Below, one piece after another: positions 1,076 to 58,000 of a stretch of 64,000 nt of DNA (the first letter of the stretch is position 1; the number at the start of each line of letters is the position of its first letter). The notes under the pieces were generated by a model, which worked only from the letters and a program-made list of their open reading frames with translations, was not told the DNA's origin and searched no databases. The stretch is from Bugula neritina (taxonomy: Eukaryota > Animalia > Bryozoa): the NCBI GenBank assembly GCA_964035545.1, contig OZ037767.1:23390628-23454627 (forward strand), given 5' to 3'. Position numbers and translations under genes: made by a program.

Positions 1076-1380
1076 TGTTATAGTTTTCAGATTTAGGGTT
1101 GATATGCTGTCCAGAGAGTCTATTTATTTGCTATAGAACTGCACCAGGATAAGTCGAGTGAACGAGTATATTTTACACACAATTATACATTATAAAAACG
1201 ATACATTACATCCAGACAAGTTATACATCTAATCTATTTGACACTCTAGCTTCGACTGACTTAGCAGCGGGAAACTATAATTGCTGCTAACTATCAAATA
1301 CGCTAATTGGCTATTCATTGTTCCGGGTCAATTACGCGACCTTACATGTTGTGCTGCTGGTAGTTCCACGAACCACCACA
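1076..1380 (-). repeat. 3' LTR (305 bp)
   Basis: Direct repeat of 8264-8568. Minus-strand AATAAA at 1123-1128. 8-bp inverted repeat TTAGCAGC...GCTGCTAA at 1261-1290. Confidence 0.97.
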
Positions 1381-1391
1381 CCGCCCCCACC
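1381..1391 (-). other. Polypurine tract
   Basis: Minus strand GGTGGGGGCGG immediately 5' of the 3' LTR TG. Confidence 0.75.
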
Positions 1392-1666: not shown

Positions 1667-2744
1667 CTAGTGTCCTTGTTGGGCACGCCGGTGCTTGGCT
1701 TGGCATGTACGCAGTTTCCGTTTCATACGGCATACGGATCCCTTTAGCTGGAAGAGTCCTGTTGTAGTGTTAAGTAGATCTGGTGCCAGCTGGGTGAATT
1801 CTTCTTGTAATCGCAGGAGGCGTTCTTCTACTGTGGCCAGGCGGACTGGGTCTGGGGACGGTGTCCGTCTGCGGCGCAAGGGGGGACTGGGGGACCTGGT
1901 TCGTCTCTTCGTCGGGGTAGGGGAGATCTCTCCTTCTTCTGGATATGTAATCTCCTCGGGGGTGTATGTAATCTGAGGGCGGTCAGACACCAACGGGGAT
2001 TGTTGGCGGGCGTTGTCTAATACACGTTGGAACCCCGAGGACAGAACGGCTAACAGCATGGCCTTCTTCACCAGGGGTCGTATAAGTGTGAGGAACTCCG
2101 GGTATAGCTTAGCGTCGACCACGTAGTTTTCTCCAGGGAAACAGCCCGTCGCTCGATGTCTGGTGACGGGGTAGGGATACACATCATTGTACCCGCAGGG
2201 GCAGAATGTTAGTAGGAGATGAGCATTGACGTGTAGTTTCAGGGAGCGGTGAGAGGCGCATTCTTCACCACAAATCTGGCATCTCGTCCGTCCTCTGGAC
2301 CCCCAGGCCGTTTCTATTTCTTCCTCTGTTTGTGGAGATACCCACCGCCAACGGCGGCGTAGTGGCTCAGGCCGGTCACCACTAGCATACTCCTCCGGGT
2401 GCGGAGCGGGAAGTGTTCTATCCCGTACCCTGGTTGTAGCGGGTCGAGTGTAATCTGAAAAAGTTTCAACAGTGTTAATACAGTACACTGCCGTGTTGTC
2501 AGCTTGAATAGCTTGGCAACTCCTAATTCAGTTACCTCGTAGAGATTTGTGGTAGTGAATAGTCAGATAGAACACGTATTGCAATGAGATTATAAAAATC
2601 TCTAAGTCGAACTGAGTTCTTACTACGGTATTTCACTAACCTATCTCCAGCTCGATTGACTCAGTGAGTCGGAGCTGAGTGATGCAATCTAGTTTCGTAT
2701 TAAGATATAGTTAACTCACCCCACGATCTGTTGTCGTAAGACAT
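1667..2744 (-). CDS. Retrotransposon ORF3, predicted 2 exons (2744-2720, 2454-1667; 270 aa): C2H2 + C2HC zinc fingers, Arg/Ser/Pro-rich tract, coiled coil
   Basis: ATG TCT TAC GAC AAC AGA TCG TGG G|GTGAGT donor joins in phase to TTTTTCAG|AT TAC. Motifs CQIC-x12-HVNAH, CPC-x12-H-x4-C and TKRRTRSPSPPLRRRRTPSP, with a heptad-like C-terminus. Confidence 0.75.
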
Positions 2745-2768
2745 ACTGAATGTGTGAAATGGTTTGAA

Positions 2769-4624
2769 CTACTGCTTAGAAACACGTCTACTCCTGACTG
2801 CATCAGCGTATGAAAAGATCGAGCAACGTGGTTGGGGTGCGTGATTAAGACTTTGTGCACCCGGCGGATGAATTTTGTTTCTATTTCCGCCGATACAAAA
2901 GTTGATATTCCCGTGGTGTTGACAACTCCCACATTTGCTCGATACTTTTCTCGTACGGTTTTCCCCTAGACTTTCATACACGCCGCTTTTAACGCAGTCG
3001 CATATGAAGTCCTTCAAGTATGCGGGGGGTTGCCTCGTACGCTGTCCCCTTTCTAGGGGGGGTGACACGCTTGCCGGTTCGTTAGTAGGGGCCTCTAATG
3101 GCGTCTCTACTTCACCGTTAGCGGTCACCTCTTCTTGTTCTCCAGATGGAGCCCCTCCCTCCGTGGGGGTTTGCACTTCCGGAACCGGTTCGGTTTCTGG
3201 AAGTGATGGAATTAAACTTGGCGGTGGCGGACACGCTTCTGTTGACAAAAGCTGCCGCTCCTCTCTCACCAAGTTTTCTTCCCGCGGTATGACCACTTCG
3301 TATTCAGGTCCATGCCGCCGTCGCCCGCGCGTTGTTGTCTGCCTCCTGGGCTCTAACAACGGGGGGGCTTCTCCCACTCCGTCGGGGCTAGCCCAATACG
3401 GTTTCAAGCGAGACTCGTTCTGGATAGACACCTGTCCTGAGCGCTCAATCTTGTACGTATGATTTGGCATAGCCTCGACGACCACGTAGGGGCCTACGAA
3501 CTTAGGCTTCAGTTTATCAGCCTGTCCGCGACGCCTACGGTAATTGACCATCCACACCTTATCTCCCATTTGATAGAGAGGTGGTTCATCGGAATCTTCG
3601 TGCCGCACCTTCCACTGCTGTTTGCGCAGTATATCGTGTGCGGCCTTCATCCGTTCCACTAGTTCACTGGCATACTCGTGAACCGAGTTGTCTTGCTCTG
3701 GAACGTGATAGGTGAGATGGTCAGGGACACGAGTCTCTCTCCCGAGCATCAAGAGGTTTGGGGTCTCACCAGTACTGGTGTGTGGGGTGCTACGGTATGC
3801 ACGCATGACTTGCGGCAACACCGTATCCCATTCCTCTTGACCTCGTCCAAGGAGGAGACTCCGGAGTGCATCACCTAGCATCCGGTTGTTGCGCTCCACC
3901 ACCCCGTTACCTTGAGGGTGGTAGGGGGTGGTCCTGCTCTGATTTACTCCCCAGAGGTGGCAAAGGTCGCTCATCAGTTGAGACTGGAATTGAGCGCCTT
4001 GATCAGAGTGTATCTGTTCGGGGAGCCCAAAATAACAGAATACATGTTGGTCTAGTGCCCTGGCCACTGTTGGGGCTGATGCATCTGGGATAGCCAGAGC
4101 ATCCGCCCACCTAGTAAAGTGGTCGGTTAGTACTAGGATCCAATTATTGCCTCTGGGGGTCAGGGGCATGGGTCCGACCAGGTCTACAGCGACTACTTGC
4201 CAGGGCCTACCAGCATATAGCCTCCGCCGTCCTGCTTCCCCAGGGGGGCGGCTATGCTTACTGGCCTGGCAGATCTCACACTGTTTGACTCTGAGCCGGA
4301 CGTCACGCTCCATTTGTGGCCAATACCACCGGAGTCGTAATTTGGACATCACTCTCTCGACCCCTGCGTGGGCCTGTTTGTGAGTATCCCAAATCAACTC
4401 ACGGCGGATGGCCGTGGGGCAGACTACCCTCTTCCTTTCCGGGTGTCTGCCGCTGGCAGCTAGAGAGATGGTTAGTAACCCATCCTGCCCGATCCGCAGC
4501 GAGTCCCAACGCTGACAGTATAGCCGGAACTCGGCGCATCCCTGTCGTATGCGTTCCTCGCTGGGTCGTCGCCCTTCCCTTTTGGCCCGGTATATGTCTG
4601 CCACGACTCCAGGCAGCTCTTCTT
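2769..4624 (-). CDS. pol: Pol, part 2: integrase (HHCC, DDE, GPY) with long Pro/Glu-rich C-terminal tail; out of frame with RT/RH by an apparent 1-nt deletion
   Basis: HKQAH...CEIC; VDLVGP / HSDQG / VERNN; KFVGPY; RTRQPPAYLKDF. Adding one C at ~4625 restores ...ELKKLQEELPGVVADIYRAK. Confidence 0.94.
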
Positions 4625-7330
4625 GAGCTTCTTCAGCTCTCGAACATTACCGGCCAGTACAGGGTTGGCGCGGAGGTTTTGTACACCCTCCGGGGACTCA
4701 TCAATTCCTTGCCTGAGTTGACCCTGGTCCCAGTCAAACCGTGCTCCGTGGTGAGCCAGCGTCTCCAACTCGCATCGCGGGGGACCTCCATCACTCCTCT
4801 CGATGTTGAGACACTGTTTGCAACCTCCGTCAGGTCGGCGACTCAACCCATCCGCATTGCTGTGTCTCTTGCCCGGTCGATGTTCGATCCGGTATGAGAA
4901 TTCAGCTAGGATTTCGAGCCACCGGGCGACCTGACTAGAGGGCTCTGCTCTCTTGCACAACCAGATCAGCGAGGCATGATCCGTACGCAGCCGGAACTTC
5001 CTGCCATATAGGTATGGTCTGAAGTGCTTCACTGACTTGATTACTGCCAGCAGCTCCTTGCGGGTAGTGCAGTAGTTTCGTTCAGTGGGTGAGAGAGACT
5101 TGCTGTAGTAGGCTACTACTACTTCTCGGCCTTCCTGCACTTGCGACAGCACAGCGCCAACATTTTGGTCACTGGCGTCGGTGTCGAGGATGTACTCCAG
5201 AGTGGGGTCTGGGTAGGCCAAGATGGGCGCCGTTAGTAGGCAGCCCTTGAGGCGGTCGAACGCTTCTTGTTCGACTGGGGTCCACTGCCACGTCACTCCC
5301 TTTGCGGTGAGCCGGTTTAACGGCTGTGCTATGCCCGCAAAGTCTGGTATGTATTGTCTGTAATACCCTACCAGCCCCAAGAAAGCCCGGAGTCCGGTCA
5401 AGTCTTGGGGGGTGACCCAGTCTTCTATTGCCCGTACCTTCTCGGGATCCGTTGCCACGCCGTTTCGACCGACAACGTGCCCCAGGTACTTAACCTCTGG
5501 CTGCAATAGAGCGCACTTAGAAGGCTTGAGCTTAAGACCGGCACCTCGGAGTCTCTCAAAGACCTCCTGCAGACGACTGACATGTGTCTCGAAGTCTGGG
5601 GAGATCACGATGACATCATCGAGGTAGATCAGCAGTGTCTTCCAATGGAGCCCGCTGAGGACTTGCTCCATCAGCCTCTGGAAGGTGGCTGGGGCGGAGG
5701 TCAACCCGAAATGCAGCACCTTCCACTTCCACAAACCGTCCCGTGTGATAAACGCCGCTTTCTCTTGGGCGTCGGGACTCAGAGGAACTTGCCAATAGCC
5801 ACTTAGCAAGTCTAACGTACTGAAGTACTTGCTGCCGGCTAGGGCGTCCAATGACTCGTCAATACGAGGTAGAGGGTAGGCGTCCTGTATGGTTACGCTA
5901 TTGAGTTTGCGGTAATCCACACAGAACTGCCAACTGCCGTCTTTCTTCCGGACCAGTACGACTGGCGAGCTCCACGCACTATGGGCGGGCTCTATCAGTC
6001 CCCGGTCCAGAAGATCCCGTACTTGTCGGCTAACCTCCTTCTCTTTCTCCGGCCCCAGCCTGCGTGTGGGCTGCCGGACAGGGACTGTCCCTGCAGTCAG
6101 CGGTATTTCGTGTCTGACAATTCCAGTCAGTCCCACGTCATGCTCTCCGCTGCTGAACACATCACCGTAGTCGCGTAGTAACTTAGCCATAACTTGGCGT
6201 TCTCTGTTACTCGCGCAGCCGCTACAGGCTGTGTCATACAACTCCCGGAGATGTGCGGGGACTGCCCCTCGCCCTTGAGTAGGGCACTGAGGGAGTGCCT
6301 CTGTCGCATCACCCAGCGACGGGCCTACGTCTTCCTCCTGAACAGAGTGAAAACGGCCCAGCATCGACCCAGCCGGGAGCTTGATAGACTCGGTAAAGGG
6401 GTTGACGCACTGCACTAAGATCTCCCCTTGCTCAGTCAGCTGATTCAGACTGCTGGCAAGTTGGATCTTTTCGTGCGCGCCTTCAACTACCCCGAGTCCA
6501 GAGATCCGGCTATTATTCACCCTGCAGTGAATGGTAGCCCGGGAGCGGCCTGGTATGATACGGTTGCGTACCACTTGCACACCTCCCACTAAAAGGCGGC
6601 CGAACTTGTCGACGCAGGCGAGTTCCCGCCCGGACATCATCATTGCAGATTTGCTAAAATCTATGTGACATCCGTGCCGTTTTAGGAACGGCATCCCGAG
6701 GATGGCATCCTCCTTGAGCTGACTGACTATGAACGTCTCTTGGATCGTTTGATCACGGACTCGTCCCGTCAGCTCAATTATACCATAGAAGGGAAGGCAC
6801 GACCCGTCAGCTAGGGTGCCGTACTCCCCTTCGTATGATTCCATCTCGCCCCTGACCCTAGCACTGAGGGTGTCGAAGAGTTGGCGGCTTAAGAGGTTCG
6901 TGGTACAGCCCGAATCAATGAGGAAAGTAACAGCTTTGCCTTCCAGTTTACCGGGCAAGAAATAGCTGTTCCCATGGGGCTGCACCTGAACTCTCTCTTC
7001 AGGCCTTACTCTCGCAGGGAGTACCTCCCTCGCTTTGGGTCGCGAAGGAGGTCTCTTGGGGCGGTGGTAAGTAGGCCTCGGGGGTGCCGAGGCTAGATTC
7101 CCGGCTACCTTTGTGGGCTCCCATCCAGATTCTTGGGCTTGTAGCCCTGCGAATCTGTTGTGAAGGGGCATAGCCGCGAGGCGAAGCCCCTTGCTGGTCC
7201 ATCGTGGCTGTTGCCACTGTTGGTTGCCAGTACGCGGTACCCGTCTGGGTGACCTGCGTTTCTTCTTCCCTGGGGGTTTCATCGTCGGCCCGCAGGAGGT
7301 GGGAACATCTGCGGGCCGCGGTAGTTTAAC
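4625..7330 (-). CDS. pol: Pol, part 1: aspartic protease, reverse transcriptase, RNase H
   Basis: LIDSGCT (protease), CVDYRKLN and YLDD (RT), DTDASD...KELLAV...TDH (RNase H) in ORF 4472-7390. Confidence 0.96.
7265..7330 (-). promoter_or_regulatory. Candidate -1 programmed ribosomal frameshift signal (G_UUA_AAC plus stem-loop/pseudoknot)
   Basis: Heptamer GTTAAAC at 7330-7324 in gag phase, 5-nt spacer, perfect 10-bp stem CGGCCCGCAG/CTGCGGGCCG (7318-7309/7295-7286). Loop UUCCC can pair with a downstream GGGAA. Pol lies in the -1 frame. Confidence 0.75.
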
Positions 7331-8232
7331 CCCTGATTTAGGAAGGGACAGTATCGGCGGAAATGTCCTTGATTTCCGCACTCCCAGCAAAAGCTGACTG
7401 TTTCTCCCTGTGGCGGCGCCGGTGGCCGCATGGGCTCAGGGGCGGTACTCACTGGGGTTTGTGGTGTCAGTGTTGCTATCAGCTTGGCTAGCATGTCTGT
7501 CAGTTGAGTGACTTTCGATGCCGTCGCCAACTGGGACACGGCAGCCGCGGCGGGGGTTTCCTCCCCTTGTCCCGCGGCCGTGTCTGCGCGGTCTATCTCC
7601 ACTTGACGGGAGCTTCCGCGACTTTTATGCATCTGATTAGCTAGGAGGTAAGCTTCCCCCTCAGTCAGAGCATCTTCAACGGTGGTGACTCCCCTAGCTA
7701 GAAACTGGTGGTGGAGACCCAGATCGTCGACAGATGCTATGAAAGCGTCGAGGGTATACCTCTCGCGGTTGACTGGGGGCAAGTCGCTGTACGCGATCTG
7801 TGCCAGCTTCATGACCGCGGCGGCGTGCTCCCGCAGCGGGGTGCGGGGATCACGCCGCAACCTCTGCAATCGGGCCCTGGCATCTGTAGCAGAGAGGCCG
7901 AAGCGGGCCCGCAGAGAAGCAAAGATATTATCAATGTCTACGCCCAGCCCATAAGGCTTGGCTTTGTCCATCAATGCCATTCTAAGCTTCAGCAAGGCCA
8001 CCCTAGGGGGCCACTGGGCGACGTCCATTACGTCGCTAAACTCTTGGATAAACTGTTCCACCTCCTCTTCACCCGTGAAGGTGGGCGCCTTTAACCGGTA
8101 GCGGTCTTCAGTTAGTTCTCGCGGAACCCTTCGCTCTTCTACTACATGGTTAACAGGCATTGTCTCTACAGCATTGTCTCTACGCTCAACTTCTACTGCC
8201 GGTGGTTGAGTTCCAGCATTTTCAGTCTCCAT
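7279..8232 (-). CDS. gag: Gag (317 aa) with a single CCHC zinc knuckle
   Basis: ATG 12 nt after the PBS. Capsid-like motif APTFTGEEEVEQFI. Knuckle CWECGNQGHFRRYC. Confidence 0.93.
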   Translation of the reverse strand: METENAGTQPPAVEVERRDNAVETMPVNHVVEERRVPRELTEDRYRLKAPTFTGEEEVEQFIQEFSDVMDVAQWPPRVALLKLRMALMDKAKPYGLGVDIDNIFASLRARFGLSATDARARLQRLRRDPRTPLREHAAAVMKLAQIAYSDLPPVNRERYTLDAFIASVDDLGLHHQFLARGVTTVEDALTEGEAYLLANQMHKSRGSSRQVEIDRADTAAGQGEETPAAAAVSQLATASKVTQLTDMLAKLIATLTPQTPVSTAPEPMRPPAPPQGETVSFCWECGNQGHFRRYCPFLNQGLNYRGPQMFPPPAGRR

Positions 8233-8244
8233 CTTGGATGCACT

Positions 8245-8262
8245 ATCCCACTGCTGCCACCA
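8245..8262 (-). other. Primer binding site complementary to the 3' end of tRNA-Leu
   Basis: Minus strand TGGTGGCAGCAGTGGGAT, 1 nt after the 5' LTR. The plus strand ATCCCACTGCTGCCACCA resembles the 3' end of metazoan tRNA-Leu(AAG/TAG) plus CCA. Confidence 0.85.
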
Positions 8263-8263
8263 C

Positions 8264-8568
8264 TGTTATAGTTTTCAGATTCAGGGTTGATATGCTGTCC
8301 AGAGAGTCTATTTATTTGCTATAGAACTGCACCAGGATAAGTCGAGTGAACGAGTATATTTTACACACAATTATACATTATAAAAACGATACATTACATC
8401 CAGACAAGTTATACATCTAATCTATTTGACACTCTAGCTTCGACTGACTTAGCAGCGGGAAACTATAATTGCTGCTAACTATTAAATACGCTAATTGGCT
8501 ATTCATTGTTCCGGGTCAATTACGCGACCTTACATGTTGTGCTGCTGGTAGTTCCACGAACCACCACA
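8264..8568 (-). repeat. 5' LTR (305 bp)
   Basis: Matches 1076-1380 except at two positions (1094T/8282C and 1295C/8483T). Adjacent to the PBS. Confidence 0.97.
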
Positions 8569-8570
8569 CC

Positions 8571-8680
8571 AGTGATACATGTGCTCGTACTCAGTCTCAT
8601 GATGATAGACCATAGTCGGTGTCATAGTATAATCATACTCATAGTGATACTGATACCTATACTGATAGTGATAGGAAATG
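8571..8680. repeat. Continuation of the degenerate ATAGTG/ATACTG tract, right flank
   Basis: atcatactcatagtgatactgatacctatactgatagtgatagg. Confidence 0.6.
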
Positions 8681-18085: not shown

Positions 18086-21000
18086 TTAGCTGAGGGTCAA
18101 CCATTTTGGTCCGTATCTCAGTCTTTCTCTCCTGTTTCTATTTTCTATTTTTTGTCTCCTCAGCTCTCTCAGAATACGGGCTAAGCTTGGGTCAGGCTCT
18201 CTGGCAAGAGATCTGCCACTGCGGAAACTCATATCACTAGTCCCTCTAGCAAACCTGTAGCCTTGATTGTCGTATCCAATTTTCTTAGGAAACAGAATCA
18301 TTCTTTCACCATCTGGTCTTCGTACAGGTCTGGGCTGTTGATAGTTTCTGTTGAAGATAAACAACTGATAATAAAGCAGTTTAAGTGTGAACTCAGTTGC
18401 ATGTGTGGAAATAATTAAAACCAATCAAGGATGGTATATACTAACATAATATTATTTTAACTTTATAACTTTGTATAAAATTCTGCAGCTTTGAATATAC
18501 AGTGCATTCTTCAAAACCAGTAGGTTCGAAGTGAGCAAGTTTTGTCGATTTTATTTCAATCCATAGCTAAACCTCTCCCCCCTCCCTAAATTTATCACAT
18601 GCTTCAAAACAATTTAAAGTATATATATCCTAAGCAACAGGTACTTTCATTTAGCAGGGACAAATTTTAATAGCCCAAGTTTTCTAATTTCTTTATAAAT
18701 TACAGTTTGAAATCAAATTTAATTTATTCTTTTGTTACATTTAAAATTTTAAGCACACAAGCTTTTCTCAATTTCTCCTATACTGCACCTATCTCTAGCA
18801 GAGTTGACTTATATAATTAAGTAGAGGTTATGATAGTAAGAATACAGAATTAATGTCCATCTCTTATTGGCTAGGAGCTTTACATACTCATGCACTGTGA
18901 CTTTTGAAACTATAAGTCTAATAAAATAAAGTCTGATCCTGTTGAAAATGCAGTTAAATCATCTCAACCTATTGGTATGTAAGTAAGCAAATCACAATCT
19001 ATGACCTGTGTTTTCTATGTTTATGTTTAAGATATTTACTGCAAGTATCTTGATAAACTGTTTATATTAACACATCACAGGAAAATTGCAAGGTTTTTCT
19101 ACTAATTACTAGTTCCAGTGTTTGTGCTTTACCCAGGTGATGAAACACGTTATCATAACATAATGTGATGTTGAATAGCCAACAGACTAATGAACTAGTG
19201 ACTAGCTTCACCCACATTGCCTGGTCCAAAACACCAGTGGATATGTTGAATTTCGTTGCCATTAGAGATTTTATATTATATAAACAGGTCTACCTTTCAT
19301 ATTTTGGAGGAGATACCATAAGCACTTTTTGTCTGGTTTTTGGAACTTTGGTTGCTCTAAAGTTTATTTTTAGAGGTTGTCTACCTCTACCTCTCCTTTC
19401 TTTCTTCATTGTTTGTTTTGGCTTTACTGGCGTCTTTTTAGGGTTTTTTAAGCCTAACGCCTAGAAATTTGCAGAAAAGGAAGATGTTGGCTTTAACTAT
19501 ACAGACAAAATTTTAAACTATACCAAGGCTTTAAAATCTCATTTAGTACAACTGATCAAAACTTTAAGGAAAATTTGAAATTTTCAAAAACTTAATTATG
19601 GAAAACTGGCTGCCTAATGTCAAAATTATGCAATGCTGAATTGCAAAAATGTTATTACCAGAGAAAAACAGTTTAGTCTAACTCACATAGACTTGCAGCT
19701 ATGCCAAAATGATATGTTTAGCAAATTTAAAACATTAATAGTAATAATAAATTATAGCTCATGAGAAGCTAACAGGACTGCTTGTTTAAACGCTATATCA
19801 AAATTAATATCATATGGTTGTTTTGAAAAAATAGCTTAAACGTTATTAATTATTTGAACTAATTGAGATTTTTAAACAACTTTATGTTGATGACATTTCA
19901 AAATCTTTGTTTTTAAGGTTTTAAAATATCACTTTAGCTCTAACCCGATAGAACTTGGAGTCTTCTTTAGCAGTAGTTACATTGATAACTTCACCAGAAC
20001 TACCTACTAGTACTACGGGATCAAATGTCTTGTCAGAATCACTATCTACAAAGAAGTTCATGCAATTAGAATTTTTTGAACCTTATAATACAAGTTAGTA
20101 CTATAGATTAATTCTTGATAGGCATTTAAAGTCTGATATAAAAAACTGCTCAAGCTTTTTAAAAAATATAAGGAACTTTTAAAATTTTATCTAAATTTTT
20201 TTGAAATCTATAAAAGTACCATTATCTTGGCTTTTTGGTGCGTCAGCTTCTTCCTGGTTTTCGGTTTCTGCATCTTTAGTACTTGATAGTTTTTTATCTG
20301 TTGAAGGAATAGCCTCAATAATTTTGCTGGGATCTTCAGTGATTTTGTCGGGATCTTCAGTGATTTTGTCGGGATCTTCAGTTATTTTGTCAGAATCTTG
20401 AGTTTTTTCAACTTGCGGGACCACCTCAACTTTTTTTGGAGTATCATTATTTACTTCTCTTTTGGCAGTAGAAGAATTGTTTGTGGAAAATTTCGTGCTG
20501 GAGACTTTTTGCTTGTTTTTGGAAGGTTTAGTAAGCTTTTTAGGAATGTCTGGTTTTACTACTGCATCGTCATTTTTAGGAGTTGTCTCTACTTTAATTG
20601 GTTCTTCAGATCTTCTTGGCACTCTTATCTCTTTTGTAGACCTATCTCCTGAATTACAAACAGTATAAATACTAATATACTGCAATTTCTTTTATAAAAG
20701 TTGCAACAAACAACAGCCACCAAAGACATTCATTATGAGAAAATATTGTCCAATTCTGACAAAAATAAACTTTACTTATTATAAATCTAGACATGCATGT
20801 ACTGGTTACTGTAGAGATGAGTTGCCCCAGTAGCTCCTATGTAGTGTGATGTTAAGCACGCCAGCTTGCAAGTTGGAATTCTGAGGTTCAATTCCTAGTG
20901 GAGGCAGAAGTTTTTACAGTTACCAGATAAAGTACATGACAAACAGACACCAACAGCTCACAACATAAGAACTATATTATACAAACCTGCGTAAGGAACA

Positions 21001-24000
21001 GTGCTTGGTATTCTGTATTCCGTTTCACCTACTGGAGGGAGCAGAGCCACCTTCATTCTCTTGCATTTCGGATACTTTGAAGTGTTGCTCAAGACTTGAT
21101 GGTCAAGTTTGCCCTGATCTCGCTGCTTCCAATTCACCAGCATGTCTGTTAGATCTCTTTGGAGTGAATCATTGTAAGCATCACACATTTTTGCACGCTG
21201 CTCATCAGGTGTGTTGGGTTTTAGTGGTTTTGGAGCCAAAGCACTTTGCTTATAATTTTTAGTGGTTTGAGGCTTATTGTTCTCAATATGAATTTTTACT
21301 GGGTGGTTGCTCGTTGAGATTGGTGGTGCATCTTGTTGATTCGTCTTCATGCTTTTTCCTATGCTGTGAATTGCTTTCCAGATTGCTTCATGGATGCTGT
21401 TTGTTGAACTTGATGGACAATGCTTGTCAGAGGATTTGTGAGTTTTGTCTCGGTGCCGCTTTGCTCGACGCCGTTTTGCTCGTAACTGAGCTTCTTGCAA
21501 ATCCGTTCTTTGGCCAAGTTGCTGTTGGTCTAAATGATCTAGCGTACAATGCGGTTCATCTTTTTGATTTAATAATTTCTCAATCTCATCTAAATTTAGT
21601 ATTTTGTTTTCTGTTTCCAATGGTTGAACCTTTAATTGAGGAGAAAACATTTCTTTTTTATATGATTTATTTCCATATGATGGCATGTTTATTTTGGGCT
21701 TGAACACCAATCTCTGAGTTTGATTAGATGGATGGCTAGACTTCACTACTGAGGAAGGCTGCGCTTTCTTCTTTGATTTATGGCCACGGCTTTTTCCATC
21801 AAATCTATTTGCAGGGTGTTTATAATTTAGGCATGATTCTGCAGTTGAACAATCAGCAAGCTGAAGTTTCTTTCTAGGATAAGTGTGCAGACGGCTTTGA
21901 TCAAGTTGTTTTGATGAATGTGTACAAGTTTGCACGTGTTTTATGTCACTTTTACTGTCACTAGCATATTGGTGTTTTACTTCCTTACATTTGAATTTTG
22001 TTCCATGTCTTTTGATAATTGGGGAAGTTGTAACTTCAAGTTTCACACTGTTTCTTAGTGGTTGATATTGTTTTCTGTATTTTCGTACTTGTGACTTTTG
22101 AGCTCCATTGGGCTTCTTACCAGAAAGTTTATTTTCATCTCCACAAGTGGTATAAATAGGATGTTTATACTTTCTTCTAGATGGTTTCATAATACAATCT
22201 GTCAACTCACTGCTTAAAGAATCATCCTGTATGATTGTTTTAGATATTGGCCTCTTGTATGCTAGATAGTACTGCTGTGTGCTCATCCTGTTACAGTTTT
22301 CACAATTCCTGCAATTTGCTAACTTTTTGACTCTTGTCCTTTTTGATATTCTTCTGATGGTTTGTAGGTGATCACTATTTGGAATTTCCAAAGTTCTGTT
22401 TGGTGGCTGGTTTGTCATAGTGCTCTTTGAGGCTGTTGGGAGTACCTTTAGAAAGCGAGTAGTTTCACTTTCAAATTCATAGGGCTTGTAGGCCAATGTT
22501 GATTCTGGAACTATCTTGAAAAATTTTGGCCTCTGGTATGCTACAGTCACGTTAAAGAGTTGATCAGTGTAAACACATGCTGATATTAAACAGTTTTTTA
22601 TTACAGATTTTTCATAGTTGTACATATGTATAATTTAGCTTTAGTATGTACATACAAATAAATGTTTCTATAGGGTGGCTGCACATATTGATAAACTGAG
22701 AAAATACAGCAATACAATGAGAAGTTTTGCTTATGTATGTTTAGAATTGAAAAAAATCTGTACTTTCAAACCAAAAAACTTTTTTTGCATTTAATTGAAG
22801 TTACAAGTACAAAAGTATTTAAAATCTAAATGATGTAATCATGTAGTAGCAATTCTTCACAACTTTTATATTACTAAAATAGTAAAGTAAACACTCTGAA
22901 CTCTGGGGTAGCAAGTTTTGCAAAACCATTTCACATTATACTACATATCTATTGAAATACCTGTTTGAGCTTTTAGACTTTGAGAGTAGCTAGTATCACT
23001 TAGACATGAATGATCAGAGTTGTATCTTCTACTGTATTTCATTCTGGGTGTGCAAAGAGGTGTCAAGTCAGATGTGTTGTTATGTTTTGCTTTATTCCTG
23101 TTAATAAAAAGTTATAACATTTTTTTTGATCAAAATTGATTATTTTACTACTTTGATTTACTTTTGTGTCAAGTTAGTTAAGTTAGTCGCATACTATTTT
23201 AATCTTATTTGTTTTATTTGGCTGAATAACAATTTTAAATAATAATGAACTAGTAAATAACAGGAAATAGAACGAAATAACATCAAAACTAATGTTAATA
23301 TATGGTATACTGTATATTGCAACTTGTAGGGATATTTCTAATATATAGTTTATATTGCAACTTGCAGTGATAATGCTAATTTTAAAGAAGTTGAACACCT
23401 TTGCCATTCTTTGTGCTTTAACCTTGACTTCGTCATCAATCCTAGCCCAGCATTCCGGGAACATCTCTTTCCCTATAAGTAAAAGTTGTTTACACATATT
23501 TGTATAATAACCCATAAATTTATGGTTTTATGGTTTTTATTATGATGAATTTATTCATAATAATAATAATAATAATTAAGTAAACACTGCAACGGACTAA
23601 GGACTAAAAATAATCATTTTTTTGGTATTTTCAGAGCTGAAATGGTGATTGAATAAAGATACACCAAAATAAAATAGCCATACCTGGGGCACTTTAGGCA
23701 TGAAATATTTGTTCCAAATGCCTTTGAGTTTGAAAAGCAGCTGTCTATAAAGATTGAACTGCAATCCCTTAAAAGAGGCATAAAATATATAAAAATTACT
23801 CAAATACACAACATAATACAATGTCACAAAACTGTTGGTAGCAGTGTGACGAGTTCGAAAAGTCTGGTAGTCAGAAGTGTATAGACAAGTAGCATACAGC
23901 TTGCTAATCCAGTTGAGAGTAAATAGAGTTGTGAATATAAGTAGACTTTATTTCTCTAGTAAGATATGCACAGATGAATTTATAAAAATGAACTGATTCG

Positions 24001-31664: not shown

Positions 31665-31945
31665 AAATATATACACTTTATACATATATACACTTTATAC
31701 CCATATAGGCTATATACTGTACACCTATATACACTTTATACCTATATATACTATATACCTATATACACGTATTACCTATATACACTTTATACCTATATAC
31801 ACTTTACACCCATATCTACTTTACACCTATATACACTTTATACCTATATACACTTATTACCTATATACACTTTATACATATATACACTTTATACCTATAT
31901 ATACTTTATACCTACGTACACTTTATACCTATATACACTTTATGC
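31665..31945. repeat. 17-bp minisatellite
   Basis: TATACCTATATACACTT units. Confidence 0.9.
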
Positions 31946-34496
31946 AGTAAAATACTGTTATGAGTAAAAGTAAAACTTTAAGTTACAAATTAGGGTTCTA
32001 TCCTGTGACAATCTGATCAATAACTGGAGAGCCTGCCTTAAGAATTTGTAATTTCATGAGAAATATATTATAAAATAAACACATAGTCATGAATTCTATC
32101 ATGCACTGACCACACTGGCATTTCAAACTTGGTAAACTCCCAAACATGTTAAATAAACCAAATATTTATTATTAAGTTGAAATATATAAAAAATACTTAA
32201 GGAAAGCTTCAAACTATTACAAATACTGAAAAACAAAACTAACCTGTGCCTCTTTAAGTTAATTCCAATTCAAATATAATAAACTGTTAAATATTCATTG
32301 CATTATACTGCTTTTACAACTTGAAATAATTATGCTATGTGATAACTTAACAGTGCTGATTTTATTTTTTTTGCTAGAAGTCGGCTGTTATAATTCCTCC
32401 CCCAATAATAAATAAAAAATACATCACTGCAAAAACCACCTTCAAGTGAATCAGTTGAACAACTAACAGCAGTAAATAAGACTATTCATCAGTATCCTGA
32501 TTCTTATTCTGCTGCATATTCTGCATATTCATATACTAATTTTGAAGGGTGTGTCAACCAGACACATAAACACGCAGAAATAAAATTTTAATGTATATAT
32601 AAAAGCATTTACACTGATATACTACTTATAAATCCTCACGCAAAATCAAAATTATATGCTACTAAAACTGAGTGCAGATTTGGCGTGTTTTAGATGGGCC
32701 ACCTGTATAGCCTACATGCTATTTCCTATTTATCTTACAATACATAAATATTATATTCATTATTTTCTATCAACAACCTCATGGGATTAGAGAACTTGGA
32801 TTAACACCTGTGAAACATTGCTTTGCTTGTCACTGTTCACCATATAATATATATTTAGTGTTTTCACAACTAGTGGTGGGCTGCAGAGATCGCAGGAGCT
32901 CAGCTATGGAGAGAAGCCCATAGCTAGCTACCCCAAGAGCTAGCAGCATGTTTACATGCACAGTGTGTGTATGTGTGTTTCATAGTTCATCATCATAGTA
33001 TATTAATAGCTCCTAAACCAAATATTGGTTACCCTGATGAGTTTCAATTAGTAGAGCCAGAGAGCAAGTTATACTACTAATAATCTTACATTAAACACAA
33101 GATACATATTAGTAACTATTGAAATCTAAGAGCAGAAGCTATATTATTTTCAAGTTATCAGAGAAGAGTGAAAGGTTTGTCTGCTAAGAATTTTCTTGTT
33201 TTTTATTTAGACTTATATTGTGTGTTTAGTTTATCTAGATTTCACAGTGTAGCTTCGTGAGCAAAAGTATTATAAGGTGGAATGAAATACTAATAACTAC
33301 ACTCACAAGACATCAGTTGAATTCCACACTCTTAGAGGAATACAATACATTTGTCTACAGTTATATTTTTCATTTCATACAGTATACTATAATATAACAT
33401 TTAATAGACACTTGTTATACAGGCACACTTAATTGATGGGTATGATAGATATAATTAGTTTAATGTGTGTCAGCATATTAACTTCTAGCCAAAGGATTAT
33501 AACATTTTATCCTTTAGCTATTCAACACTTTCTTTTATATGCAGAGCTATGATGGGTAACTAAAGAAAAAGCCTTCTAGGTTGGAGTGGCAGCTTTGAAA
33601 CTAAGTTACTTCTGCCTTTTATTCACTAGAGCCCGAACTGATCAGATGTGCCTAGAGAAGGGAAGCTTCTAGTACCAATACCACCAGTCAGTACAATTTC
33701 AACACAATTGGCTAGGAGCTCCGATCCCAGTCAAAGACATTACACACTGCTTCTACAAAGACAATAGTAGTCTGTCTCTTTCTTTCTCAATGTTTGGTAA
33801 GTTATCTTTTAAATAATTTTGTTAGCTTTGCCTGTCTTACTGTCATTGGTTTAACCAAAGTCTCTTTTTCTTTAGCTGGTACTTTCTCTCGTATGGTAAA
33901 CTTGAAAACCGACTTTAATAGTAGCACGATTCTTTAGATTGATGTGGCTTTTGTGACATGGGTAGTTTATTTTGGACCTAGACTTGACTTAGTTGCATAA
34001 TTTGCAATTTAAAATTGATTTTCTATGATTTATATTTTCGAAGACTTTAGTTAAAAACCCGTTAAGGTGAAGCTCTTTGTGAATCTATGCTATGCAAGAG
34101 TCTACATGTTGGTTGGCTATTTCAAAATTTGTGCTCACAAGTTCCTGCATGAATAAAAAAAGATTGACTATACAAAAACAATTAATAATAAAAGTCTCAA
34201 ATGAAGCCCTGCATGGCCAATTGAATTGTTTTGGTGAGAGACTGGTGAATTCCAGAAAGTTCTGCTTTGTTCTAAATTTTCAGCTGCTTCAGCAGCACTT
34301 ATCACACCCCCTGTCAACACATGACATATTTTGAGTTCTTGTGCTTGTTTGTGGACTTGATGATTGAATATTCTCTTTATAGGTCTGTAATTATAAATTA
34401 AGTGAAGTTAGTTGTTTTTCAGACACTGTTGTAGCCTGTTTTCTTAAAAGAAGTGAATTCTTGTTTACCAGATGGTAGCTGGAAACTGTTTGATGC

Positions 34497-34663: not shown

Positions 34664-35882
34664 TCTCTCTCTCTCTCTTGCAGTCAGTCGATACGACTAT
34701 GACTGTTTTATGGATTCGGCTTAAATTTGGTTGCAGCTCTCCACGCAGCTCTGTTGTCAGCTGTCTGCTGCCATGAACTCAAGTTTATTGCTCTCCATTT
34801 CATATTCCTCTTAGCAACATCTTTAAGTCTGAGTCTAGGTCGCCCTGTATTTCGTTTACCCTCTTTCAGCTGAGAGTAGAGCAATTGTGTTGGTAGCCGG
34901 CTATGTTCCATCCTGTGCACATGGCCTAGCCATCTCAAGTTCTTTTCTATAAGGATGTCCGCCATGCTTGGCAAATTGGCACGTCTTAATATTTCTTCAT
35001 TCCTAACTTTGTCATACCATTTTACGGCCATTATGTCTCTCAGTTGTCTCATCATGAAAGCGCTTAGCTTCTTCACCTGTGTCCTGTATATTGTCCATGT
35101 TTCTGCTCCATACAGCAGGCTTGAGAGCACCACCGCTTTGTAGACTTTACACTTTACCCTGATAGATACATGTCTGTTGTTCCAGAGTCTCTGCTGCAGC
35201 TTTCCGTAAGCCGCACTTGCTTTACTTAGTTTGCTCCGTGGCTCTTTACCTATTTTTGCTGTACAGGAAACAGTGCTTCCTAGATAAGTAACGTCTGAGG
35301 CAAGTGCAACTGGTTCTTGATCTATCATGACAACTTCAGGTTCAGGTAGAGGGTGGATGAGTTTGATTGGCTGGTACATGCATTCTGTCTTTTTTATGTT
35401 GATTTCTAAGCTAAACTGAGCTGCTGCTTTTGCAAAGTTGTTCACTAGCACTTGCATATCTGCAGCGCAGCGCAATGTGCCACCAAAGCACTGTCATCAG
35501 CAAACAACATCTCTCTGACTAGGTGTTTGGTAGTACGGGTCTTAGACTTGAACTGAGCCACATCAAAGAGATCAGCCCCATGTCGAGTTTGAATATAAAT
35601 CCCTTCATTTACATTTTTAAATGCCACCTCAAGCATAGCGGTCAAGTATAATGAAAATAGTGTGGGCGCAAGAACACACCCCTACTTGACACCATTGGTT
35701 ACTGTAAACTCATTTGAAGCATCTTTACCTTGCACTACCTTGGCTTGCATGCCTGCATGAAGAGCTTATATCAGGTTGGTGACCTTCTCAGTTAAGCCAA
35801 ACTTCTTCAGTACCCTCCAGAGGCCATCTCTTGATACTGTATCAAAGGCTTTTGTAAAGTCTATAAATACAGCATACAGCTT
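34664..35882 (-). mobile_element. 5'-truncated, decayed RTE-clade LINE (RT and C-terminal region)
   Basis: FIDFTKAFDTVSR, VK*GCVLAP, MLFADD, LLYGAETW, LRWLGHVHRM...GRP. Stops at ~35683 and ~35768, a 5-nt duplication frameshift at ~35465, a 3' stem-loop at 34681-34705 and a (GA)n tail. Confidence 0.93.
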
Positions 35883-49000: not shown

Positions 49001-52000
49001 AATTGTATAAACTAGCATGCTTCCCAATATCCCATAGCTCCCTTCAAGTAGCTAATAGCAACAGCTAATACAAATAAAACCCTGAAAATATAATCTATAA
49101 ACAAGTTTATTACAAAATCTGTGAAATTTTATACTAGGAATAAATTTTTTGATTTCTAAAAAGTACTACTTAAAAATCAAGTTTCTAAATATGACAGTCA
49201 AAACTTTTTTCTGTATAATGACTTTTCCCTCCCCATTTCAGAATAAAATAATTTTCTACAGGTTTGTTTCAGGTAGTTTTAAACACAAAATTCACCTAAT
49301 AACCACAACAACATATTTAAAGGGTTATCATTTACCCAAATAATAAAGCCTAATCATTAGAAAGATTACGCTGACAAAAGACCAAAATCACATAATTCAT
49401 ATGTTCTAATGTCACAATACTTTACTACGAAACAAACCCTATAACTTTGAGTGAAGGTTCAGGTTTCATTCCTAATAAATATAATGTTTCATAGAACAGC
49501 ATATTTTTTATAATTTAATTACTGGTAAACTATTAGCTGCCATAAATTGTAATACAGAGACATGATATATCGATATGCAGCACTGACATCTCTTTAGTTA
49601 GAGTAGAGGTTGCAAACTCCAGCAAGGCTTCACTTTAAATAAACAATATCTAAGTTTGTGATATTGAAACAAAAGTTGCGATACCTACTTTCCGAGATAT
49701 TTTAATAATCCATGACGGTGGAATAATGAGATTTGCAAAGTCGCCAAGTTTACACTCTTCACCTATATGTTCTTGTGAAAAGCAGGTCTTTGCATGGTAA
49801 GCGGTTTGACACCATGAACAACACACAGCTATAATATCCTGAGAATAAAACAAATCCACCCATACATATGGTTTTAATAAAAACAGTAATGGTTGCCAAT
49901 TGCATTGAATAATTGTTAGACCTAAATATGTAGCATATCAGAACCATAATTTCACTAGTATATGCTTAGTATTTAGTTTGGCTTTATGCATGTAAGTTAA
50001 CTGAATAGATAATAGCGAAATCTGCTGTTTAGAGAAAGAAGTATTAGAAGACCTTCAGCTACAACATTAACCTGCAACATTTTATAACACTAATTAATAA
50101 CCACCTGATTGAAATTTGCTATCTTTGAAATGCATGCTATAAAAATTCAGCTGCAGGTTTTAATCAAATGGCTTACTTTTACAGACTGAAAAGGGAAGTT
50201 TCGTTGTGGGAAAGTTTTCATGCAGGCTTTACATTTGCCATCTTGCCTTTTTTTGTGAATCCAATGATGTTGCACACCCTGTTGCTGAAAATTGAACATT
50301 AATATGTAAAACAATATTTACAAAAAAGATTACAAGGCATTCTCCATTGAACACTTGAAGTTATACTAATATACATTATTAAAACCTTTCTTTTGTATAG
50401 CAGTTAAATATACCTGCTATAAGGTTCTATGTTTAATTTAGTTCCATGATAAAAACTTAATTTAAAAATTCCAACTACTTCCTACCAGCTCAGCTCTACC
50501 AAAGACCTATTCATTAAGTAAACTTGAATTAAAATTCCAAACAGAATGTAAGAAACATGCCACATTTAGTGAGCCCACTAACCTCTCTGTAGTTTCGAAT
50601 TCCAGCCTCTCTAAATGTGGGTTTGCATTGAGACTCCTGTGAATATAGAGTAGAGTAGTTAGTGTACAGTTCATATATGTCTATACCAACCATTATATTA
50701 TTAACACTACTTTACAAAGTAATAGAATGAAATAAAGAGAGAAATTAGAAATTAGAGAGGCCGATATATACTTGGCCTTGAAACAAAACTTGTGCACCAG
50801 AAAATGCTAGAAGAACAAAAGGTGTAGTGATTTCAAGACGAGCTATACATCTGCAATACATACTCTCTCCAGTTGATCAATACAGGCCAAGTGCACCGTC
50901 ATATAGCACGCACTACACTTCTTCCTGTCCCCCTGTTTCTGCAACAAATTTACAAAATACAGCTTTTTTAACAGCGATAAAAGAATTCAAAAGCATATAA
51001 AACAAGACACTATTTAGTTGATTGTAATACTAGTAACTGTAATATAAGCAGTGAGTGAGGACGAGGAGGAGGGAGGGAGGAGGGGGGGAGAGAGGGGGGA
51101 GGAGGGGGAGGAGAGAGGGGGGAGGAGGGAGGGGGAAGAGGGAGGGGGAGGAGGGACCTTATGAATGTAAAAACACCGAGAAACAACCTCGAACATTTAA
51201 GGCACCCTGCCAGCTCAACGCGGCCGAAGTTTTCTCATTGAAGAGCAGAACTGATGGAGAGGGGGCTGTCATTGCTTTGTAATGGCAATTATAAAGATAA
51301 GTAACTAGTAGTAAGAAATAGATATAATTGAGTAGTTGCTTTTTAAATACTAAACTTTTTATAGAGATATGCATGTCTTACTTTTTAGTTGAATTTACCT
51401 ATATAAAAATAACAACAGAAATAAGTTCTTGACAAGCACCTAACTTGAGGTGAAAAGCACCTAACTTGGGGTGACAAGCACCTAACTTGAGATGACAAGC
51501 ACCTAACTTGAGATGACAAGCACCTAACTTGAAGTGACAAGCACCTAGCTTCAGGTCCTTGTTTCAACAACACAAAAGTGAGCATGTCAGTCTCTCTTTG
51601 ACAAGCACAGCAGGATTCAACTGCAGGATGTGCTGGTCAAGGAGAAGTTTTACACTTACCACAATGCAGTCTCTCTCTGAGAGATAGCACGACTCCCCAG
51701 ATGAATAGTCACACCACAAATGTGCACCTTGTTTAGCATATTCCTAAAACATCGTAGGAAACAGATTTACATCTTACAACACACTTGATAACAACTTCAA
51801 ACTGTTAAATCCGAGATAGTATAGCAATCTGACATGATTACGAGTATACAGTGAATAACCGTGATAGGTATTTATTGAAGGTATCTCATATTCTAATCTC
51901 AACACTAGTGTCACACTTTTATAACTAGTTAAATAACGCATGCTGCACAGGGCTATTTACTGTGGAGAGAACAAATCCTAAAACATAGTTTATTTATAAC

Positions 52001-55000: not shown

Positions 55001-58000
55001 GAAAAAAGTAGGGTGTACATTTTAATGCTTCAATTGGTAGGTACTGCTGCAAGTGGAAAGAAAGGTAGAAAATATACAAGTTTTTTCAAGTGTTCAAGTG
55101 AGCTAGCAACCATAATTATATGCACATACTTTTGAGAAATACACGTATTACCCAACACATCGCCTATTTAGATTTATAAATTTGAGAATAATACTAATTA
55201 TATATCTTTTTTTAACCTGTAAACCACAAACAGCATATCAAAACCAAATCTTTCAAAAATAAAACCACACTTGAAATAACTAAATAAAATAACTTCTTAG
55301 TGGGTGAGCTGACAACTCCAAACAACTGATTTCGAAACAAAATTGATAGCAAAAGTAGAATTTGATGACAAATAGACATTTTTCATCAAAAAGAGAATCA
55401 AGTAAAACTCCGATCTGACCGAAACCGCCACTTTGACCAGCTGAATAAAAGAAATAAAAGCTCTATAACAGCAGCTCACAGCAGAAATAGACAAACAGAC
55501 AGACAACAAACTCGCCACACAAAGCGCCTGCTAGAGTCTAGAGAACATTTGGTGGGCAAGCTCAGACACAGTGTATATGCTACTAGTTACACGTCACAGT
55601 CTAGTCATATGATAGAGTCACATAGCAAAGTATTCACATGACACAGTAGTCACATGACACAGTAGAGTCACATGATACTGTAGAGTCACATGACGCAGTA
55701 GAGTCACATGACACAGTAGAGTCACATGACACAGTAGTCACATGATACAGCAGATTCACTAATCAAGAATCACTACCGTAGGGCAGACAACTTCGTCAAA
55801 TTATGACAAACTCACTCGGAGTCGGCAAATTTTGAGAATGAGTGACATTTTTGAAGTCCATACATCAGCACGTCATCAAAAGATATTCTGCGACGTGACA
55901 TTCTTTGAGCAACAGCTCCTTTCGGCTTGTCGATTGTATCAGAGGTGGGAACATGTAAAGTAACAGCATTTGTGTAAAGATTGCACTTGTTTTGATGCTG
56001 TTGTTGAAACATCTTATCAACTTTAGAGCGCCTTGTACCAGTATCGCCTTGTAGCAGTGGAGAGCATATTGCGTTAGTGTCACCTTGTAGCAGTAGAGAG
56101 CACCTTGTAGAAGTGTCACCTTGTGGCAGTGGAGAGCATCTTGTAGAAGTGTCACCTTGTGGCAGTGGAGAGCACCTTGTAGAAATGTCCCCTTGTAGCA
56201 GTGAAGAGCACTTTGTGGAAGTGTCACCTTGTGGCAGTGGAGAGCACCTTGTAGAAGTGTCACCTGAATCAGATTCGTCAGTGTAGTTTGAGGAGACAGA
56301 ATAACTTTGCTGTGAGCTGGTAGGTACTAGCGTCTCTGCAGTTGATGGGAGATAGTCAGCTTCACTTTCGCTCTCACCAGATATTTGTGAATAAGTAAAA
56401 ACCAAATCTTTAGGTGGAGTTAATTTGTTGAATAACTTTTCTTGAGATGACGATTGTCTAGGCATGGTCTCTAATGACGTCTTTTCATTAACCAAGCTGG
56501 AATGGCTTGAAATATTATCTAAAAACATTTAATTAAAATATCCAACATTATAAAGCAGAACGTACAAGAGATATCAAGAGTTAAATGGCCAACAGTAGAA
56601 AAGCAAATTTCAGTAAGAAGAAAATGCTTTTCTTACCCCCTTCAGCAGAGAATAAAACCAGATCAGCGTGAGAGCCTACATTGTCATTAATATTGAAAGT
56701 AAATCTATTTTTAGAAGAATAACTAATTGTGTTTTCAGAGTCAAGTGCCAGGTCAAAACTTTCTTCGTCACTATTAAAGCTCTCAATACTGCTAGAAGTA
56801 TCTGAATCATAAGCAGCCGTTTCTTCCTCAGCCAATCTCGCCTTCTGCTCCGCCATTAGGATGCAATGTAAACAACTTGAAGATGCTGCTTAAAACAAAA
56901 ACATACAATTTTGTTGGCAAGTAACTTGCAAAATTATCAGTGTGATGCAAAATTAATAAACATCATTTTTATTTAAATACCGTCAACCGCTGCAAAAAAT
57001 TCATAAAGTGAAAATTTCCATTTGCTAACAAACCAGCATAACTTACTTTTACCTATAGTATAGAGTGTGGGTGTAGTAGGTGGTGTCGAGTGTTCAGTAT
57101 TGAAGGTAGACAGATCTGAATCGGATGAAGCTGCAATACTGGTCACACTGGCATTAGACAAGGAGTATGATGTTAGTTTGGCCAGCAGCTTTCTCCTAGC
57201 ACCAGCCAATAGACCGTGACCAGTCATATCTAGAGATCTAGAACGTTCCTGTCTTCGAACTGGCACTTCCAGAAGGGACAGCTACAGTATAGACCAGAAT
57301 GCATGACAGAGAAGTACAACAGACTCACTCAAAGCTGGCTCTCAATTAGTCTTAACCAGTCCCTTAAACTACTCTGCATGAAAATCAGTTGCAGTTGTAA
57401 AATCTCAGATCCAGGAGTCTTAAGTTGCTAAAGCTTTGCTAATTCTATCTTACATTTTAATATGAATAAAATGATTTAGCCCACCTGCGCCCCACTATAT
57501 TCCGATTTCCTGCCCTTCACAATAAAATTTAGTTCCCCTGTCCCCTCATCTGCCCTAATTGGTAACTAGTATTGAAGTCAAGGCCTTTACTCAACAGTTA
57601 ATAATATCTCGTCGCTGCAGATATAATGTATATACAAATGCAGTCCAAACAAAACTCAATTATCAATACTTTTTGTAATCAACAATAATTAGCTTTTAAA
57701 GTAGATCTGAACGTTGTATTGACTGTGTAATAGTTAAGTATAACAGTATAGCAGGATAACGTTATAGTGATATTTACAACCTTAGCATGTTCAATGCATA
57801 TATTAACTGTTTTAAATATATCACAGAACATGGGCGGTATTGCTTTCAAATAATTGAAAAAGAAACTCAAATTTAGTTTTGGTGCTCACATTGCCATAGT
57901 GTTTCTCTTAACGATATCAATTATGTCCTCACAACACATTCATAAGTGAATAACTTGAAATCAGTAATGTACCTGAGTCTATGATATTAGTAAAAAGAGC

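Follow-up and report, generated by a model that had tools for sequence, protein, structure and literature searches.

A conserved zinc-finger gene between integrase and the 3' LTR of a Ty3/gypsy element from Bugula neritina, likely joined to the start of gag by splicing and possibly a regulator of unspliced RNA

The export of unspliced RNA from the nucleus is a problem solved by CERV for Cer1, a Ty3/gypsy element of Caenorhabditis elegans, and by Rev for HIV (PMC10309623; PMC3315495). CERV has its N-terminal exons in common with GAG, contains a Cys finger and a leucine zipper, and is required for the export of gRNA (PMC10309623; PMC3315495). It is a protein of 517 aa encoded by five exons; besides a C4 finger, it has domains termed H, M, and G-protein-like, and it is reported to lack obvious homology outside nematodes (PMC10309623). 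Other non-env third ORFs in the literature consulted are enzymes or fusogens (PMC5408684; PMC7264820; PMC11952523; PMC12440569): those of bdelloid rotifer LTR elements are a GDSL esterase and a DEDDy exonuclease (PMC5408684), and sORF2 of the MDG1 group is a small membrane fusogen whose transcripts are reported to be unspliced (PMC11952523). The balance between spliced and unspliced RNA in envelope-less LTR retrotransposons is known from very few cases, for example, Cer1/CERV.

We analyzed a 64-kb stretch of B. neritina DNA (hereafter the window), in which a young Ty3/gypsy retrotransposon lies on the minus strand of AT-rich DNA, running from 8568 to 1076; all features of the element described below are on that strand. 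It is bounded by two TG...CA LTRs of 305 bp, the 5' LTR (8264..8568) and the 3' LTR (1076..1380), which differ at 2/305 nucleotides. One nucleotide behind the 5' LTR is a primer-binding-site-like 18-mer (8245..8262), presumably tRNA-Leu-like, and a G-rich purine tract (PPT; 1381..1391) precedes the 3' LTR. The interior encodes gag (7279..8232), an ORF of 317 aa with a weak Pfam match and a C-terminal CCHC knuckle, followed by pol, in which Pfam shows protease, then RT, then RNase H, then integrase. The first three domains are in a 5' part (4472..7435) and integrase is in a 3' part (2769..4646; ORFs and Pfam), whose frame differs from that of the 5' part in this copy. The closest named matches to the RT came from other invertebrates, with 50 to 56% identity. 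A candidate −1 frameshift heptamer was found in the gag/pol overlap (7324..7330); it is of the slippery type, is in the right phase for −1, and has behind it a stretch of approximately 480 nt whose RNA is predicted to fold strongly (z −2.9 to −4.4). Very stable RNA structures were also predicted in the integrase tail (3288-3169, z −7.0) and in RT (6048-5929, z −5.2), either of which could be the true cis element.

The window copy looks defective because pol occupies two frames and a target-site duplication is missing. Several sister contigs differ by an indel at 4472-4646, where the frame changes, which indicates that the split of pol either is peculiar to this defective copy or arose through misassembly. 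Although the LTRs are nearly identical, no target-site duplication was found, as the 4- and 5-bp flanks differ; this concerns the present copy, which may be recombinant or mis-joined, and not the element family. The flanks at 1066-1075 and 8569-8578 are similar simple repeats; a recombinant copy, a mis-joined copy, or an insertion preference for simple repeats could each give this pattern. Elsewhere in the window, a 261-codon frame at 34711-35493 (minus strand) resembles the 3'-terminal part of what we take to be a LINE (RTE-like) reverse transcriptase ORF. Long Lys/Ser-rich open frames of 558 and 166 codons at 20194-22634 (minus strand), one of them with a 21-nt tandem repeat, are probably host exons, and minisatellite arrays occupy 31677-31976, 51409-51575, 55618-56276, and 60243-60928, with periods of 17, 21, 18/36, and 36/28, respectively.

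The third gene, ORF3, lies between pol and the PPT/3' LTR, where retroviruses keep env. The pol frame ends at a TAG (2771-2769), and the main exon of ORF3 (1667..2454) comprises 261 codons after a split codon, plus a stop. A preliminary description had proposed that this frame, which has no early ATG, is entered through a 25-nt micro-exon, and the elements of that proposal were correctly read. Read without splicing, the frame has no Met before 2059 (residue 157 of 286), a position behind both zinc fingers. The candidate micro-exon (2720..2744) begins with an ATG (2744-2742), holds eight codons plus 1 nt (peptide MSYDNRSW), and ends in the phase-1 donor G|GTGAGT, with the intron starting at 2719. 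The intron ends at 2455 after 265 nt, its phase 1 fits the open frame 2527-1667, and the joined product would have 8 + 1 + 261 = 270 aa. A branch-point-like site, a pyrimidine tract, and the 3' splice site are found at 2455..2493. The acceptor-like string reported directly ahead of the micro-exon ATG is also present (2746..2752) as a candidate site. On the minus strand of the element, GGTGAGT occurs once, GTGAGT three times, and acceptor-like strings 13 times. With these frequencies and the 72 close homologues of the ORF (see below), the arrangement exceeds what chance would give.

The description of ORF3 as a non-env gene lacking a membrane helix agrees with our analysis. The highest hydropathy over 19 residues is 1.51, no transmembrane helix was predicted, and values above 1.8 occurred in just 4/72 close homologues. 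No env match was obtained with Pfam for the proteins of the element, and ORF3 does not show the signal peptide and transmembrane helix that characterize env.

ORF3 proves to be a genuine and conserved gene. Word seeding retrieved 72 close homologues among 1412 candidates, with identities of 44 to 97%, and a profile built from 57 of the close sequences retrieved 121 cluster representatives. The two fingers assigned by the preliminary description, C-x2-C-x12-H-x3-H (C58, C61, H74, and H78) and C-x-C-x12-H-x4-C (C84, C86, H99, and C104, counted from 2452), are present. Ligands were counted in the aligned rows of the close set and in 112 further cluster representatives. In the close set, the eight Cys/His residues were kept in 41/43, 41/44, 42/49, 46/51, 50/50, 48/51, 53/55, and 66/68 rows, and the corresponding counts were 71/77, 75/77, 74/79, 75/81, 80/83, 78/81, 73/81, and 65/70 in the further representatives, that is, all eight were kept in 86 to 100% of aligned rows in both sets. 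The ligand conservation that the preliminary description had named as a check thus holds across the 72 close and about 110 further homologues. A reading of ORF3 as a captured fragment of a host zinc-finger gene or a neutral passenger, for which one could cite that its sole named homologue is an annotated host-genome gene of the bryozoan Watersipora subatra, is extremely improbable: frames stay open and ligands conserved down to 44% identity in dozens of subfamilies, and a donor-like constraint is built into gag (see below), so that the neutral-passenger form is largely refuted; a host origin is possible.

The alignment and a fold model place both fingers, together with a Trp motif and helices, in one conserved domain of 127 aa (1997..2377). 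The domain was modeled with a pLDDT of 96.4 and a pTM of 0.88 using 100 chosen sequences; the fold of full-length ORF3 was poor (pLDDT 61), with a long C-terminal helix at residues 208-259 in that model. The domain fold gave no match at E ≤ 0.001 in PDB or BFVD, and a search of the ESM Atlas with ORF3 returned matches that were all below 0.9. Pfam and PDB sequence searches detected the first finger alone and weakly: zf-C2H2 (PF00096) scored 13.9 bits on the window protein against a cut-off of 25.2 and reached E ≤ 0.01 in 6 to 8 of 100 family members. The sequence matches of the domain were solely to DNA-binding C2H2 fingers (SALL and ZBTB; best E 1.3e-5 over about 21 positions), and the first finger showed a weak fold match to C2H2 fingers too. 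The fact that all sequence matches are DNA-binding fingers favors a DNA target. No enzyme domain was found in the protein family by Pfam.

Two further segments follow the domain. The C-terminal heptad helix with a basic end (1676..1831), a coiled coil predicted from the model and a heptad score, recurs among homologues, in line with the coiled coil of the preliminary description. Tails of at least 80 residues occur in 35 of the 65 distant homologues that contain the motif; the heptad was detected in 23/35 of these versus 18/175 shuffles by a crude script score, which is not COILS. A basic patch in the tail was found in 24/35 versus 81/175 shuffles, little above the expectation from composition. 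We do not claim a leucine-rich export signal, since the pattern is indistinguishable from an amphipathic helix. The Ser/Pro/Arg tract (1853..1924) occurs in 3/66 close homologues that span the region, all at least 79% identical to the window protein, and on these alignments it is an insertion private to a subfamily. Because the tract is confined to so few homologues, the analogy drawn earlier between the SPRRR tract and the hepadnavirus core fails.

Evidence connecting the wider ORF3 family to Gypsy elements came from homologues with flanking sequence. Sequence resembling the integrase tail lies in front of ORF3 and in frame in two of them, P0047 (E 2e-6) and P0097 (E 5e-6; both against the first 9 kb of the window), which are probably internally deleted copies, and three others (P0026, P0029, and P0048) read through intron-homologous sequence. 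Among the distant homologues, linkage to Gypsy elements was shown for P0097 only. No locus of a relative was confirmed with a close ORF3 alignment in metagenome, viral, or genome contigs, nor with integrase in viral contigs or with distant homologues in viral and metagenome contigs. Contigs of the same size common to ORF3 and gag matches numbered 4 versus a chance mean of 1.5 and maximum of 4, which is not significant. The single named homologue is the annotated gene of W. subatra; its two annotated isoforms, P0092/P0191 (XP_067940964.1 and XP_067940963.1), carry the ORF3 domain twice, along with a C-terminal heptad, and this protein may be the product of a domesticated gene.

One homologue, P0023, displays what a spliced product would look like. 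Its first 14 residues are the same as those at the N-terminus of the gag homologue P0369, and past this leader it continues exactly at the residue predicted by the acceptor at 2455. Against gag leaders P0023 scored 73, whereas the next of 194 proteins scored 39. In gag, no other part of the variable leader is as conserved as the site of the join: codon 16 is Glu in 62/62 sequences (the N-terminal region is present in 63/120 gag homologues), and codon 15 specifies a residue whose codon is able to contain the donor dinucleotide in 60/62. The window copy itself does not have the donor pattern at codon 15. The gag donor was spotted after P0023 was found, but the conservation of this site does not depend on P0023, and the acceptor had been predicted beforehand. 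On the acceptor side, the residue before the site is Ser or Leu, compatible with YAG, in 20/21 read-through homologues, the exception being P0023; this count leaves out P0091, a false regex match. P0023 sits on a 5.3-kb contig and for that reason may represent a reverse-transcribed spliced RNA, whereas a chance deletion hitting both sites is unlikely. The join point of P0023 indicates that the acceptor at 2455 proposed in the preliminary description is very probably used. Together with the donor-like conserved site in gag, it suggests that the gag leader (8190..8232; 14 codons plus 1 nt, ahead of the conserved codons 15-16) probably opens the coding sequence of the ORF3 mRNA in this family as its first exon. 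Thus, the ORF3 of the family appears to be joined to the start of gag, likely by splicing, as seen in one homologue.

The micro-exon may be the start exon of an RNA from an internal promoter, a regulatory cassette, or unused. Its ATG shares the integrase frame, eight codons behind the pol stop. An exon starting from the upstream acceptor would be 26 nt long and, after the gag leader, would lead into a shifted frame that ends after 46 codons. The donor is apparently kept in P0026, since the two residues that it would encode open the frame called there. In 127 sister contigs (X2), 17 substitutions and two insertions reach 3% or more; the ATG, the donor, and the two AG sites have no variant of at least 3%, which has a probability of about 0.4 by chance and is not significant alone. 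Of the three variants within the micro-exon, two are synonymous when read from the ATG, and the first intron base of the donor differs in two sister contigs. A joint at 2720/2454 was not found in the contigs of two runs; the RNA run X1, which contains a small share (0.13) and scattered contigs, covers none of 2380-2780 and is uninformative either way on expression.

The preliminary description gave the micro-exon the main role: a multiply spliced mRNA would have it as its principal first coding exon, and the SPRRR tract would be the phospho-regulated part of the protein that binds nucleic acid. The perfect donor, unique on the element and apparently kept in P0026, the acceptor-like site upstream, and the variant-free ATG and splice sites (subject to the chance level given above) speak for it. 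Against it stand the presence of the tract in 3/66 homologues, the frameshift that an exon from the upstream acceptor would cause behind the gag leader, the deviating first intron base of the donor in two sister contigs, and P0023, the only spliced-looking product, which skips the micro-exon. We consider this version very unlikely. The accessory or regulatory role that it assigned to ORF3 is plausible; the micro-exon as first exon and the multiply spliced mRNA are hypothetical, and the one spliced-looking product uses the gag leader instead.

The 265-nt segment between the micro-exon and the acceptor (2455..2719) shows conservation even in relatives that have an ORF3 of about 48% identity, with scores of 85 for P0026, 52 for P0029, and 76 for P0048 against shuffle maxima of 24.5 to 31.5, and the alignments contain frame-shifting indels. 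This combination indicates that the candidate intron is constrained yet non-coding. A coding role for the region upstream of the acceptor was considered and rejected, as homologues read through it in different frames. The segment is predicted to be structured, with a folding z of −2.15 that is unexceptional for this element (15/62 element windows are below −2). Substitutions in the sister contigs were compared with the predicted fold, in which 61% of the stretch is paired: seven of nine fall at unpaired positions, one keeps its pair, and one breaks a weak pair. Within a predicted hairpin (2648..2677; stems 2677-2672/2653-2648 and 2670-2666/2662-2658, pair probabilities 0.86 and 0.97), 3/3 changes in the sister contigs fall in the eight unpaired of 30 positions, and one compensatory pair is implied by fixed codon positions of P0026. 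This evidence for a structured segment is suggestive only. Rfam gave no match for the intron segment. The 172 nt of its 3' part (2455-2626) contain 0 variants of at least 3% and the 93 nt of its 5' part contain nine; these variants are not independent, and the depth dips there.

We propose that ORF3 is a nuclear regulator, comparable to Rev and CERV, that lets unspliced RNA of the element escape splicing or leave the nucleus. An intact ORF lies between integrase and the PPT, with conserved zinc ligands and no membrane helix. Splicing of the gag leader to the acceptor at 2455, strongly suggested by one homologue and by donor-like conservation in gag, would make a spliced RNA that encodes the ORF3 protein, without Gag or Pol, the default: a strong donor would lie inside gag, and Gag, Pol, and the genome need unspliced RNA. 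A basic zinc-finger/coiled-coil protein that lacks a membrane helix and comes from the spliced RNA, together with a conserved, predicted-structure segment confined to RNA that retains the intron, would suit the task that CERV and Rev perform. The protein would then oligomerize through its C-terminal coiled coil and bind nucleic acid through the two-finger domain and the basic end. The target, the weakest step of the chain, may be a structured element in the intron-retaining RNA, with 2719-2455 as the candidate, and the 25-nt micro-exon may provide a second, optional entry to the acceptor. We hold the first two steps, a conserved non-env third gene and its splicing from the gag leader, to be highly probable, and put the probability of the whole chain at roughly 45%. 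A broader synthesis is unlikely as a whole: an envelope-less Gypsy clade, widespread in marine invertebrates, would have independently evolved a switch in the style of complex retroviruses, in which the gag donor feeds a new zinc-finger/coiled-coil regulator, a structured response element lies in the retained intron, a second phase-1 donor and a 26-nt cassette exon that shifts the frame serve to tune or shut off the regulator, and the domain was also taken up by a bryozoan host gene.

The main rival to such an RNA-fate regulator retains the same spliced gene and makes its product a dimeric, DNA-binding transactivator or repressor of the LTR, with the micro-exon opening the coding sequence of a transcript from an internal promoter, which would set off a feedback loop; foamy-virus Tas is the analogue for this role. 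It draws on the resemblance of the first finger to DNA-binding C2H2 fingers by sequence and, weakly, by fold, on the order of finger, linker, and coiled coil, which is the layout of a transcription factor, and on a micro-exon with its own ATG, the right phase, and mostly synonymous variants in that frame. However, there is just one canonical finger, the larger domain around it has no fold match, the internal promoter is only hypothetical, and the conserved structured intron segment is left unexplained, so that we regard a transcriptional role as rather unlikely.

Alternatively, the ORF3 protein could counter host silencing or guide integration via chromatin or a host protein, and the donor at 2719 could give an integrase-ORF3 fusion if the stop at 2771 were read through. 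The position of the micro-exon in the integrase frame behind a single TAG, the double occurrence of the domain in a bryozoan protein, and the similar simple repeats on both flanks of this copy fit such a role. Against it, the TAG shows no variant of at least 3% in the 127 sister contigs, no fused full-length protein was seen among the lengths searched, and an enzyme domain is absent according to Pfam; we judge it quite improbable.

No description of the ORF3 protein family was found in the literature searched; subscription journals, Repbase reports, and supplements may hold one. The earlier term "undescribed system" is nevertheless too strong, as a spliced non-env regulator that shares the gag leader is already known from a Ty3/gypsy element, namely CERV (PMC10309623). 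At the level of the domain, the first finger has the classical C2H2 spacing C-x2-4-C-x12-H-x3-5-H and weak matches to PF00096, SALL, and ZBTB, but the window protein falls below the Pfam cut-off, lacks the tandem canonical fingers of classical C2H2 proteins, and has a CxC-H-C second site, with both sites in one 127-aa domain. Like the bdelloid ORF3s and sORF2, it is a conserved extra ORF without env in an invertebrate Gypsy element; by Pfam, these proteins have no homology to ORF3. Its placement as a sense ORF between pol and the 3' LTR and, probably, its expression by splicing are shared with env and env-like ORF3s (PMC7264820; PMC5408684), whereas it has zinc ligands in place of a signal peptide or membrane helix.

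With Rev and Rex, the ORF3 protein would share a spliced-RNA origin, a basic stretch, an oligomerization helix, and a candidate structured element in the intron; by contrast, its element carries no env, and a role in export is proposed for it. To our knowledge, Rev has no zinc-finger domain like that of ORF3. CERV is the closest counterpart, being a non-env Ty3/gypsy accessory protein from a spliced mRNA that shares gag N-terminal coding (here seen in P0023), with a Cys-rich finger, a coiled coil or leucine zipper, and a basic stretch. ORF3 differs in its length of about 270 to 275 aa, its C2H2 and CxC-H-C domain, its C-terminal coiled coil, and its single exon between pol and the PPT, and CERV has a demonstrated function, whereas ORF3 is known here from sequence alone. 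No sequence or fold similarity of ORF3 to CERV or Rev and no match to a G-protein-like domain was found, the separation from CERV being based on its description. If our proposal is right, the ORF3 family works like CERV; it is not a CERV member, since length, domains, and finger type differ, and it looks unrelated. Even if its function were transcriptional, it would constitute an undescribed family of accessory proteins that standard annotation of transposable elements would miss or mislabel as env. Beside CERV, the ORF3 family provides a second, apparently unrelated candidate for the control of spliced and unspliced RNA in envelope-less elements; its new domain is well predicted, its splice sites can be named precisely as predictions, and a candidate RNA element accompanies it.
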